A DNA stretch of 64,000 nucleotides, from the sequence record MH051915; one strand, 5' to 3'. This DNA is from Enterobacteria phage vB_EcoM_IME339. This document shows positions 277 to 51,594 of the stretch, piece by piece. Each line of letters opens with the position of its first letter. The first letter of the stretch is position 1. The position numbers and the translations under genes are program-made. The notes beneath the pieces are model-generated. The model did no database searches, had not been told where the DNA came from, and saw nothing but the letters and a program-made list of their open reading frames with translations.

Positions 277-518
277 TGTCTGAACAAACTATTGAACAAA
301 AACTGTCTGCTGAAATCGTAACTCTGAAGTCTCGTATCCTTGATACGCAGGACCAGGCGGCTCGTCTGATGGAAGAATCCAAAATTCTGCAAGGAACTTT
401 GGCTGAAATTGCTCGCGCAGTAGGTATCACTGGCGATACTATCAAAGTTGAAGAAATCGTTGAAGCTGTCAAGAATCTTACTGCTGAATCTGCTGATGAA
501 GCAAAAGATGAAGAATAA
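276..518 (+). CDS. 57A: tail-fibre assembly chaperone gp57A
   Basis: 80 aa acidic coiled-coil protein [25 protein letters not shown]...; start overlaps stop of gene 1 (ATGA-type junction); position and sequence as T4 57A. Confidence 0.8.
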
Positions 519-973
519 TGGAATTTAAAGACTTTTCAACGGGTCTTTATGTAGCAGCTAAGTTTTCAGAATTAACACTTGATGCGCTGGAAGAACTCCA
601 GCGCTCTTTACGTGTTCCTAATCCAGTTCCTAGAGAAAAAATTCATTCGACCATATGTTATTCAAGAGTAAATGTTCCGTATGTTCCATCGAGTGGAAGT
701 TTTGAAGTAGCTTCTTCTGGACATTTAGAAGTATGGAAAACACAAGATGGATCGACTCTTGTACTTGTGCTAGATTCTGAATATCTGCGCTGTAGACACA
801 TGTATGCGCGGGCACTAGGTGCTACACATGATTTTGATGATTACACACCGCATATAACATTGTCTTATAATGTTGGGCCCTTATCATTTAGCGGTGATGT
901 ACAAATTCCGGTCGTATTAGATCGTGAATACAAAGAGCCTCTTAAACTTGATTGGGCAGATGATTTAAAATAA
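518..973 (+). CDS. 57B: gp57B-like protein (T4 57B = Acb1 anti-CBASS cyclic-nucleotide phosphodiesterase)
   Basis: 151 aa ORF directly following 57A with overlapping TAATG junction; size and position match T4 57B. Confidence 0.7.
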
Positions 974-979
974 TTTCAC

Positions 980-1018
980 AAAGTTGTTTACACGTTGATG
1001 AGGTAGTGATACTATTAT
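980..1018 (+). promoter_or_regulatory. T4-type early promoter (GTTTACA -35, TG-extended TACTAT -10)
   Basis: atttcacaaagttGTTTACAcgttgatgaggtagTGaTACTAT upstream of ipI; same architecture recurs about 18 times in window; coordinates approximate. Confidence 0.6.
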
Positions 1019-1045
1019 CTCATCAAAATTAATTAGGAAAATAAA

Positions 1046-1333
1046 ATGAAAACTTTCAAAGAATTTACTACAAAAACTACCCCGGTTTCTACTATTACTG
1101 AAGCTACTCTTACTTCTGAAGTTATTAAAGCAAATAAAGGACGAGAAGGTAAACCAATGATTAGTCTGGTTGATGGCGAAGAAATCAAAGGTACTGTTTA
1201 CCTAGGTGATGGGTGGTCTGCTAAAAAGGATGGTGCTACAATCATTATCTCTCCTGCTGAAGAAACTGCGTTGTTTAAAGCTAAACACATTTCTGCGGCA
1301 CATCTCAAGATTATTGCTAAAAATCTTTTGTAA
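1046..1333 (+). CDS. ipI: internal protein I precursor (capsid-targeted, injected; anti-restriction in T4)
   Basis: 95 aa; N-terminal capsid targeting sequence MKTFKEFTTK... with prohead-protease-type site ...ITE/A; mature part matches remembered IPI*. Confidence 0.75.
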   Translation: MKTFKEFTTKTTPVSTITEATLTSEVIKANKGREGKPMISLVDGEEIKGTVYLGDGWSAKKDGATIIISPAEETALFKAKHISAAHLKIIAKNLL

Positions 1334-1344
1334 TAAATATTTCA

Positions 1345-49585: not shown

Positions 49586-49916
49586 AGATGATTTAGATCT
49601 AGAAATTATCGATGAATCCCCCTCTTCGGAGGGGGAAGAAGAAAGAAAAGAACGTCTTTTTAATGAATCTCTTAAGATAATTAAATCTGCCATGGAAAAT
49701 GTTATCCAGGAGATTGTCATTAAACTAGAAGATGGTTCTACACACATTGTGTATGTGACAAAATTAGATTGGGTTGATGGAAAAGTCGTAATGGACTTTG
49801 CTGTTCTTGACCAAGAAAGAAAAGCTGAGTTAGCTCCTCATGTAGAAAAATGTATTACAATGCAACTACAAGATGCATTTAATAAAAGGTCAAAGAAAAA
49901 ATTTAAATTCTTTTAA
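49560..49916 (+). CDS. 40: gp40 (head vertex assembly chaperone)
   Basis: 118 aa ORF between uvsX and 41; start overlaps uvsX 3' end. Confidence 0.65.
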   Translation: MIWKNLMNKDDLDLEIIDESPSSEGEEERKERLFNESLKIIKSAMENVIQEIVIKLEDGSTHIVYVTKLDWVDGKVVMDFAVLDQERKAELAPHVEKCITMQLQDAFNKRSKKKFKFF

Positions 49917-49925
49917 GGAGTAAGT

Positions 49926-51353
49926 GTGGTAGAAATTATTCTTTCTCATCTCATATTTGATCAAGCTTATTTTTCAAAAGTTTGGCCATATATGGATTCA
50001 GAATATTTTGAAAGTGGTCCAGCTAAAAATACATTCAAATTAATTAAATCTCATGTCAATGAGTACCATAGCGTTCCATCTATTAATGCGTTAAATGTTG
50101 CATTAGAAAATAGTTCATTTACTGAAACAGAATATTCTGGTGTAAAAACACTTATTTCAAAACTGGCTGATTCTCCGGAAGACCATAGCTGGTTAGTAAA
50201 AGAAACAGAAAAATATGTTCAGCAAAGGGCGATGTTTAATGCTACGTCTAAAATAATTGAAATTCAAACTAATGCTGAGCTTCCTCCGGAAAAACGAAAT
50301 AAGAAAATGCCAGATGTAGGTGCTATTCCTGACATCATGCGTCAAGCATTATCAATTTCATTTGATAGTTACGTTGGTCATGATTGGATGGATGACTACG
50401 AAGCGCGTTGGCTATCTTATATGAATAAAGCTCGTAAGGTTCCATTTAAACTCAAAATTCTAAATAAAATTACTAAAGGCGGAGCTGAAACTGGAACACT
50501 GAACGTTTTAATGGCTGGTGTTAACGTTGGTAAGTCATTAGGTCTGTGTTCATTGGCAGCAGATTATTTACAGCTCGGTCATAATGTTCTTTACATTTCA
50601 ATGGAAATGGCAGAAGAAGTCTGTGCTAAGCGTATTGACGCTAATATGCTCGATGTTTCTCTTGATGACATTGATGATGGGCATATTTCTTACGCTGAAT
50701 ATAAAGGAAAAATGGAAAAATGGCGTGAGAAATCTACTCTTGGACGTTTAATCGTTAAACAGTATCCTACTGGTGGAGCAGACGCTAATACATTTCGATC
50801 GCTTTTAAATGAATTAAAGCTCAAGAAGAATTTTGTTCCAACAATCATTATTGTTGACTATCTGGGTATTTGTAAATCTTGCCGCATTAGAGTTTATTCA
50901 GAAAATAGTTACACAACTGTTAAAGCCATCGCAGAAGAATTGCGTGCTCTGGCTGTTGAAACCGAAACTGTTCTTTGGACTGCAGCACAGGTTGGTAAGC
51001 AAGCTTGGGATTCTTCTGATGTTAACATGAGCGATATTGCAGAATCTGCCGGTCTTCCAGCAACAGCCGATTTTATGCTTGCGGTCATTGAAACCGAGGA
51101 GTTAGCAGCTGCTGAACAACAACTAATTAAGCAAATCAAATCACGATATGGTGATAAGAATAAATGGAATAAGTTTTTGATGGGTGTTCAAAAAGGAAAT
51201 CAGAAATGGGTAGAAATTGAACAAGATTCTACTCCAACTGAAGTGAACGAAGTGGCAGGTTCACAGCAGATTCAAGCTGAGCAGAATCGCTATCAAAGAA
51301 ATGAATCGGCTCGAGCTCAGTTAGATGCTTTGGCAAATGAATTAAAATTTTAG
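49926..51353 (+). CDS. 41: replicative DNA helicase gp41 (DnaB-like)
   Basis: 475 aa MVEIILSHLIFDQAYFSKVWPYMDSEYFESGPAKNTF...; Walker A GVNVGKS; GTG start in track. Confidence 0.95.
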   Translation: MVEIILSHLIFDQAYFSKVWPYMDSEYFESGPAKNTFKLIKSHVNEYHSVPSINALNVALENSSFTETEYSGVKTLISKLADSPEDHSWLVKETEKYVQQRAMFNATSKIIEIQTNAELPPEKRNKKMPDVGAIPDIMRQALSISFDSYVGHDWMDDYEARWLSYMNKARKVPFKLKILNKITKGGAETGTLNVLMAGVNVGKSLGLCSLAADYLQLGHNVLYISMEMAEEVCAKRIDANMLDVSLDDIDDGHISYAEYKGKMEKWREKSTLGRLIVKQYPTGGADANTFRSLLNELKLKKNFVPTIIIVDYLGICKSCRIRVYSENSYTTVKAIAEELRALAVETETVLWTAAQVGKQAWDSSDVNMSDIAESAGLPATADFMLAVIETEELAAAEQQLIKQIKSRYGDKNKWNKFLMGVQKGNQKWVEIEQDSTPTEVNEVAGSQQIQAEQNRYQRNESARAQLDALANELKF

Positions 51354-51384
51354 TTTACAAGCTGACAAGACTATGGTATAGTAG
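51351..51384 (+). promoter_or_regulatory. T4-type early promoter upstream of dmd
   Basis: taGTTTACAagctgacaagactatggTATAGT. Confidence 0.55.
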
Positions 51385-51411
51385 TCTTGTTGGTTAAATG
51401 GGGAGATTGTT

Positions 51412-51594
51412 ATGGAATTGGTAAAGGTAGTTTTTATGGGGTGGTTTAAGAATGAAAGCATGTTTACTAAAGAAATCACAATGATGAAAGATGACGTTCA
51501 ATGGGCTACTACTCAATATGCTGAAGTTAATAAAGCATTAGTTAAAGCTTTCATTGATGACAAGAAAGTATGTGAAGTTGATTGTCGAGGATAA
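51412..51594 (+). CDS. dmd: Dmd-like antitoxin (inhibitor of RnlA/LsoA toxins)
   Basis: 60 aa ORF immediately downstream of 41, the T4 dmd position; size matches. Confidence 0.65.
   Translation: MELVKVVFMGWFKNESMFTKEITMMKDDVQWATTQYAEVNKALVKAFIDDKKVCEVDCRG

Follow-up and report, generated by a model that had tools for sequence, protein, structure and literature searches.

Orthologues of T4 counter-defence genes dispersed over the early region of Enterobacteria phage vB_EcoM_IME339

Counter-defence genes have been described in phage T4, and here they are compared with a window of Enterobacteria phage vB_EcoM_IME339 (sequence record MH051915), the window being the whole stretch of DNA analysed, 64,000 nt long. 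In T4, gene 57B encodes Acb1, a protein with a 2H fold that degrades CBASS cyclic di- and trinucleotides (PMC10419184). The product of vs.4, Acb2, is a cyclic dinucleotide sponge, and mutating its residues Y8 and F82 abolishes the assayed function; the same protein is the trigger sensed by the Panoptes system (PMC12657218). Dmd directly inhibits the toxin RnlA (PMC9391042) and likewise LsoA (PMC13353012), and internal protein I (IPI) inhibits GmrSD (PMC9391042). Srikant et al. 2022 renamed gene 61.4 as tifA, a ToxN inhibitor co-operonic with dmd, gave 61.2 as adfA, and proposed an 'anti-TA (toxin-antitoxin) island' whose other genes are candidates (PMC9391042). ModA and ModB are host-reprogramming ADP-ribosyltransferases with an R-S-EXE motif. 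[quoted passage not shown]

The window almost certainly carries intact orthologues of well-studied T4 counter-defence genes, which act independently of one another, each against a different host immune system. Judged by sequence, the genes named in the original prediction are orthologues of T4 genes, far beyond chance: Acb1, Acb2 and Dmd were 100% identical to their T4 counterparts, and IPI, ModB and ModA 97%. Some of these genes had been recognized from their sequence and two, vs.4 and dmd, by position, and all were found where they had been placed. The two positional open reading frames (ORFs), at 11346 and 51412, could have been unrelated to Acb2 and Dmd; both were 100% identical to the T4 proteins. 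Mechanisms were inferred from published T4 work, a transfer that is safe at 97-100% identity.

The window has a G+C content of ~35%, and its + strand carries essentially all genes. Megablast placed it in the genus Tequatrovirus, with ~96% nucleotide identity to phages ime09 and PP01, and T4 gene names recur in the expected order in its annotated relatives. For the comparison with T4 (NC_000866), every gene between 5 and 74.5 kb was translated and compared with all + strand ORFs of the window. The two were colinear from 57A to motB.2, over 126 genes, with the same gene order throughout, and the majority of window proteins were 90-100% identical. Judged by its sequence, the window corresponds to the part of a T4-like phage genome that holds the early and middle genes.

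Orthologues of the T4 inhibitors and ADP-ribosyltransferases

The four small inhibitors, all supported by T4 identity and by PDB and Pfam matches, are:
518-973, + strand: acb1 (gene 57B), 2H-phosphoesterase cleaving CBASS cyclic oligonucleotides
1046-1333, + strand: ipI, injected internal protein I, the mature form of which (IPI*) inhibits the GmrSD type IV restriction enzyme
11346-11612, + strand: acb2 (vs.4), cyclic-nucleotide sponge blocking CBASS
51412-51594, + strand: dmd, which inhibits the toxins RnlA and LsoA directly

The ORF at 518, predicted to encode Acb1, was intact, and its product matched T4 57B at 151 of 151 residues in BLASTP; the T4 annotation has one additional N-terminal Met. 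PDB entry 7t26 ('Acb1') was matched with an E value of 4e-62, and the Pfam family Acb1 (PF23474) with 202.7 bits against a cut-off of 27. Both H-x-T/S catalytic motifs of the 2H fold were kept, HST at residue 43 and HIT at residue 112. Acb1 would thus be expected to linearise the cyclic di- and trinucleotide signals of CBASS. The protein had been labelled anti-CBASS/Pycsar, and only the first half of the label stands. The second overstates its scope, because the anti-Pycsar enzyme is Apyc1, a distinct protein that targets cyclic mononucleotides (PMC12657218).

The protein in the vs.4 slot was identical to T4 Vs.4 at all 88 of 88 residues (BLASTP). In the ORF listing the frame can be extended to a TTG at 11310; the T4 start corresponds to the ATG at 11346, which is also the predicted one. 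Matches to PDB entry 7uq2 ('Vs.4', E 2e-57) and to the Pfam family Acb2_Tad1_hairpin (PF24729, 71.4 bits, cut-off 27) agreed with the assignment, and the nucleotide-binding residues Y8 and F82 were both present. Acb2 would sequester CBASS signals as a sponge.

Dmd was likewise identical to its T4 counterpart (60 of 60 residues, BLASTP). It matched PDB 5hy3_B, 'Antitoxin Dmd', the chain crystallised with RnlA (E 2e-37), and the Pfam family Dmd (PF17587) with 156.9 bits, above the gathering score. The protein is predicted to bind and neutralise the RNase toxins RnlA and LsoA.

The ipI call at 1046 held as well: the ORF was intact, and its product shared 92 of 95 residues (97%) with T4 IPI (BLASTP). 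Two of the three substitutions, at residues 9 and 10, fall in the cleaved N-terminal leader, and the third, V67I, in the mature part. PDB 2jub ('Internal protein I', E 2e-44) and the Pfam family IPI_T4 (PF11634, 178.7 bits, above the gathering score) both covered residues 20-95, the mature protein. The N-terminal capsid-targeting leader, MKTFKEFTTKTTPVSTITE, is followed by ATLT, and the solved mature chain begins at residue 20, where cleavage is predicted. IPI would be packaged in the capsid through this leader and then cleaved after Glu19. Injected with the DNA, it would block GmrSD, a type IV enzyme attacking glucosylated hydroxymethylcytosine DNA.

The two ADP-ribosyltransferases lie beyond position 51594, the end given in the original prediction, in the order modB, modA:
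58012-58635, + strand: modB, ADP-ribosyltransferase (ribosomal protein S1; RNAylation), 200/207 residues identical (96.6%) to T4 ModB
58632-59234, + strand: modA, ADP-ribosyltransferase whose target is the alpha subunit of RNA polymerase, 195/200 residues identical (97.5%) to T4 ModA

BLASTP identified both as orthologues of the T4 proteins, as had been proposed for 58012-59234. The active-site residues of the R-S-EXE motif were found in ModB (YRG at 72, EQE at 171) and in ModA (WRG at 71, EQE at 163), and Pfam models matched neither protein. In Bas37 (KarlGJung, MZ501089), the Tequatrovirus of the HIDEN-SEQ screen, the counterparts are bas37_0132 (99% identical to ModB) and bas37_0131 (98% identical to ModA). 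ModB and ModA would act early, reprogramming the translation and transcription machinery of the host.

The listing of these two enzymes as anti-defence genes was right as to gene identity; their described role is host takeover, and the link with defence is at the level of a screen. That they are genuine anti-defence factors, inactivating an immune system by ADP-ribosylation beyond general host takeover, is unlikely. A figure legend of the HIDEN-SEQ preprint, a transposon sequencing (Tn-seq) study, places bas37_0131 among the Mokosh type I screen genes, and its authors conclude that complete evasion of Mokosh relies on glucosylated DNA and on host proteins being ADP-ribosylated. However, the factors validated in the Mokosh type I work were Alt and the beta-alpha-glucosyltransferase, not ModA. 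In the primary literature both enzymes are said to reprogramme RNA polymerase and ribosomal proteins (PMC10468400), and no target inside any defence system has been reported for either.

The dmd-tifA region and further reported counter-defence genes

Downstream of dmd, the window can be compared with the published 'anti-TA island' of T4-like phages:
51354-51382, + strand: early-promoter-like site upstream of dmd-tifA, TTTACA and TATAGT spaced by 17 nt with an extended TG, a consensus match only
51596-51838, + strand: tifA (61.4), ToxN toxin inhibitor, co-operonic with dmd, sharing 93% identity with T4 61.4 and 100% with its PP01 counterpart
51902-52156, + strand: additional 84-residue ORF, absent from T4 at this place, with a GoF-like N-terminus (phrog_2980, E 3e-20)
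52209-52403, + strand: additional 64-residue ORF, absent from T4 (phrog_37915)
52813-53169, + strand: short (118-residue) AdfA-like protein in the 61.2 slot (Pfam AdfA PF23813, 33.2 bits)

As in the published island, dmd directly neighbours tifA downstream of an early-promoter-like site, and sp and a gene in the 61.2 slot come next. The tifA start lies 2 nt past the dmd stop codon, and the promoter-like site agrees with the early promoter described for T4 dmd-tifA (PMC9391042). The central basic cluster of TifA, in the segment AVRPTKRQIRQCKRYFRK, was conserved with respect to T4. Two features set the window apart from the island. It has two additional small ORFs between tifA and sp, and its 61.2-slot gene encodes a relative of AdfA that is C-terminal only. 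The 84-residue product is 37% identical to the first 41 residues of T4 GoF, and its gene has an early-promoter-like site of its own at 51842-51870. For the 64-residue ORF, no T4, Pfam or NCBIfam match was found.

The 118-residue protein matched the AdfA profile only at positions 129-211 of 211. It is 35% identical to T4 61.2, and the N-terminal two-thirds of AdfA are unrelated or absent. A Cys aligns with the functional His164 (RB69 numbering) of AdfA, at the residue where His versus Arg decides the neutralisation of DarT1 (PMC11257639). The protein was not filed as AdfA, as it had no full-length match to the family of ~210 residues and has Cys at the His164 site. The short form was found in 331 phage records, with 100% identity in phage AR1 and 95% in Bas37.

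Several points weigh against reading all these genes as working counter-defence factors. The C-terminal ~9 residues of TifA are unlike those of T4, and ToxN inhibition is reported to vary among TifA homologues (PMC9391042). IPI, ModA and ModB carry 3, 5 and 7 substitutions relative to T4, which may affect function. The anti-defence label of ModA and ModB comes solely from screen annotation in a preprint (10.1101/2025.11.20.689424). It is a real, though not the favoured, possibility that some orthologues have drifted functionally; TifA and the short AdfA-like protein, for example, may have lost their action on the targets defined in T4. The altered end of TifA would fit such drift, as would the loss of two-thirds of AdfA and the Cys at its functional His. 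The preservation of the short 61.2 form in so many phage records instead argues for a functional gene of some kind, and the core calls are untouched by this reading, Acb1, Acb2 and Dmd being 100% identical to T4.

Further genes of the window have been reported to counter defence systems or serve DNA modification, and the last one listed encodes an uncharacterised internal virion protein:
13301-13768, + strand: tk.4 (adfM), macrodomain, reported anti-DarTG2 factor, 155/155 residues identical to T4 tk.4 and to bas37_0223 (Pfam Macro, 27.7 bits)
21174-21701, + strand: nrdC.8, reported Druantia type III inhibitor, 174/175 residues identical to bas37_0203 (99.4%) and 98.9% identical to T4 nrdC.8
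23072-24100, + strand: nrdC.5, reported to counter Dsr1, 93% identical to T4 nrdC.5
26508-26750, + strand: nrdC.1, reported Septu inhibitor, 80/80 residues identical to T4 nrdC.1
35138-36340, + strand: alpha-glucosyltransferase (DNA hypermodification), 90.5% identical to T4 a-gt
46747-47487, + strand: gene 42, dCMP hydroxymethylase supplying hydroxymethylcytosine for DNA, 96% identical to T4 gp42
47484-48326, + strand: beta-alpha-glucosyltransferase replacing T4 beta-gt (phrog_842, E 2e-89), 99.3% identical to bas37_0154
9269-9742, + strand: 157-residue internal virion protein replacing T4 ipII/ipIII (Pfam DUF7412, E 1e-95; phrog_3155 'internal virion protein')

The idea that neighbours of the known inhibitors may be inhibitors themselves was sound, yet it had already been published and is largely realised, in tifA, tk.4/adfM, nrdC.1, nrdC.5 and nrdC.8. 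According to the 2025 Tn-seq preprint, tk.4 is the anti-DarTG2 macrodomain gene adfM, nrdC.1 inhibits Septu and bas37_0203 inhibits Druantia III (10.1101/2025.11.20.689424), and nrdC.5 counters Dsr1 (PMC9391042). The beta-alpha-glucosyltransferase, which had no match to T4 b-gt, has a reported share in the evasion of Mokosh type I by Bas37 (10.1101/2025.11.20.689424).

Among the reported neighbouring counter-defence genes that were checked, IPIII, which is needed on strain ECOR17 (PMC9391042), was the one missing from the window. The N-terminus of the DUF7412 protein, MKTYQEFITEA, is similar to the leader of T4 internal proteins. A preprint on CBASS inhibition by an ejectosome protein concerns ICP3 Gp15, not the T4 internal proteins.

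Arrangement, occurrence and candidate open reading frames

The genes had been described as a cluster-wide set, and as a single cluster this did not hold. The loci are scattered across 58 kb of the early region, with essential replication (replisome) genes lying between them, so a dedicated 64-kb cluster was rejected; the preferred description is one of dispersed accessory genes that form a few micro-clusters locally. The nine documented protein inhibitors had a mean nearest-neighbour distance of 2.7 genes, versus 8.0 expected for random picks in gene order (P ~0.003); when the pool was restricted to accessory genes, the distance was 2.2 versus 5.6 genes (P ~0.007). This statistic is exposed to discovery bias and to our own choice of gene pool. 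Because the inhibitors lie nearer to each other than random picks, the data support local micro-clusters, namely acb1-ipI, acb2...tk.4, nrdC.1-nrdC.8 and dmd-tifA.

These groups, the last one extended to adfA, could be functional islands: dedicated anti-defence cassettes in which the unknown ORFs are also inhibitors. We regard this as somewhat unlikely. The tight spacing is in its favour, as are the 'anti-TA island' already proposed around dmd-tifA-adfA (PMC9391042) and the two small non-T4 ORFs in that region, one with its own early-promoter-like site. Against it, the set spans 58 kb with essential replication genes in between, the spacing has the biases just named, and homology of the unknown ORFs to any known inhibitor was not found. 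The gene set is better described as a sample of the general T-even accessory arsenal than as a discrete island, because tifA, tk.4/adfM, nrdC.1, nrdC.5, nrdC.8 and the hydroxymethylcytosine glucosylation genes share the window.

Occurrence was counted among 50,697 phage records, giving 1469 with Acb1, 1230 with Acb2, 799 with Dmd and only 289 with IPI; because of this low count, IPI is the patchy, truly accessory member of the four small inhibitors.

The leads that are left are all uncharacterised ORFs in variable slots beside documented inhibitors. One more such ORF, a candidate only, lies in the 49.3 slot:
27230-27400, + strand: 56-residue acidic ORF (phrog_3402 'antitoxin from a toxin-antitoxin system')

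Its product has 13 acidic and 5 basic residues. It was found in 828 phage records, is absent from T4 and is 96% identical in Bas37. The 'antitoxin' label is apparently a propagated PHROG annotation, for which no experimental basis was found, and in a large protein database its matches were confined to close T-even homologues that bear uninformative names. T7 gp5.9, the RecBCD inhibitor, was considered as a relative and rejected: Pfam PF25708 scored 20.4 bits over just 22 residues, below the cut-off of 24.5, and BLASTP gave no alignment. An NCBIfam scan of ten variable-slot ORFs gave noise-level matches only, far under the cut-offs.

It is possible, if rather doubtful, that at least one uncharacterised non-T4 ORF beside the documented inhibitors encodes a new counter-defence factor, one that hits a new target. 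Candidates are the ORFs at 51902-52156, 52209-52403, 52813-53169 and 27230-27400 and the DUF7412 protein at 9269-9742. Such a factor could, for example, inhibit a further RNase or ADP-ribosyltransferase toxin in the manner of an antitoxin, or be injected and block a type IV restriction enzyme.

Differences from T4 and Bas37, and meaning for the phage

Several T4 genes are missing from the window: dam, ipII, ipIII, beta-gt and full-length adfA (61.2). None of the T4 homing endonucleases segA, segB, segF, mobB, mobC, mobD and I-TevII was found, and nrdD is one uninterrupted ORF of 605 residues. In place of the missing genes are the DUF7412 internal protein, the beta-alpha-glucosyltransferase, the short AdfA-like protein and several small non-T4 ORFs. 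The regions bearing on the absence of dam and the homing endonucleases include 54366-54635 and 28820-30637, and others elsewhere. The tRNA cluster is as in T4, and an Rfam scan of both strands of the window found the eight tRNAs and nothing else:
2368-3121, + strand: eight tRNA genes (ARAGORN, Rfam)

Non-T4 alleles are common to the window and Bas37, including the beta-alpha-glucosyltransferase, the short 61.2-slot protein and the acidic 56-residue ORF. The two phages differ in that Bas37 carries dam and, in place of a T4-type ipI, has bas37_0260 (McrBC inhibitor) and bas37_0261, neither of which had a match in the window.

Some alleles are strongly diverged amid neighbours with 97-100% identity to T4: trna.3 (56%), tk.2 (54%), nrdC.3 (60%), nrdC.2 (57%), gp56 (69%) and soc (46%). 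They are located at 1582-1980, 14347-14532, 25212-26506, 54635-55153 and 55563-55799. Their divergence points to mosaic recombination hot spots, one of which directly adjoins ipI.

Four further loci differ in gene structure. The vs.5 ORF (11132-11353) has 73 residues; T4 vs.5 has 58, with an in-frame match limited to residues 1-18. The remainder of T4 vs.5 matches another frame of the window (11172-11309, 83%), and the T4 allele looks frameshifted relative to that of the window. vs.8 (9784-10435) is apparently split into a 33-residue ORF (9784-9885), equivalent to T4 residues 1-32, and a second ORF (9848-10435), equivalent to residues 26-219, pointing to a frameshift or a different start than in T4. 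The e.2 ORF (7312-7815) has 167 residues versus 102 in T4, with an alignment confined to the first ~95, and the T4 gene may be a truncated copy. The mobD slot (17625-18616) holds a mobD.1 paralogue, with y05I-like domains at its N- and C-terminus (Pfam PF24449/PF24448), and after it a predicted membrane protein of 157 residues (phrog_944).

The sole plausible antisense gene of the window lies on the minus strand at 54363-54563. It encodes a hydrophobic protein of 66 residues behind the ribosome-binding site AAGGAGG. The protein has 92% identity to T4 DNA that lies unannotated between dam and gene 61, and in Bas37 it is annotated as bas37_0144 (phrog_2024, no assigned function).

The gene content is already known. 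These are textbook T4 genes, and inventories of them are routine for Tequatroviruses: in a recent genome note, DefenseFinder output for a new Tequatrovirus names Acb1, Acb2, Dmd and TifA (PMC13353012). The finding matters little beyond correct annotation, although positional inference in T4-like genomes proved reliable for these genes. Its practical value is a short, screenable list of variable-slot ORFs adjoining known inhibitors. For the phage itself, the gene set predicts that it should resist CBASS, GmrSD and RnlAB/LsoAB, and probably ToxIN, DarTG2, Septu, Druantia III and Dsr1, and that it should be detectable by Panoptes via Acb2.

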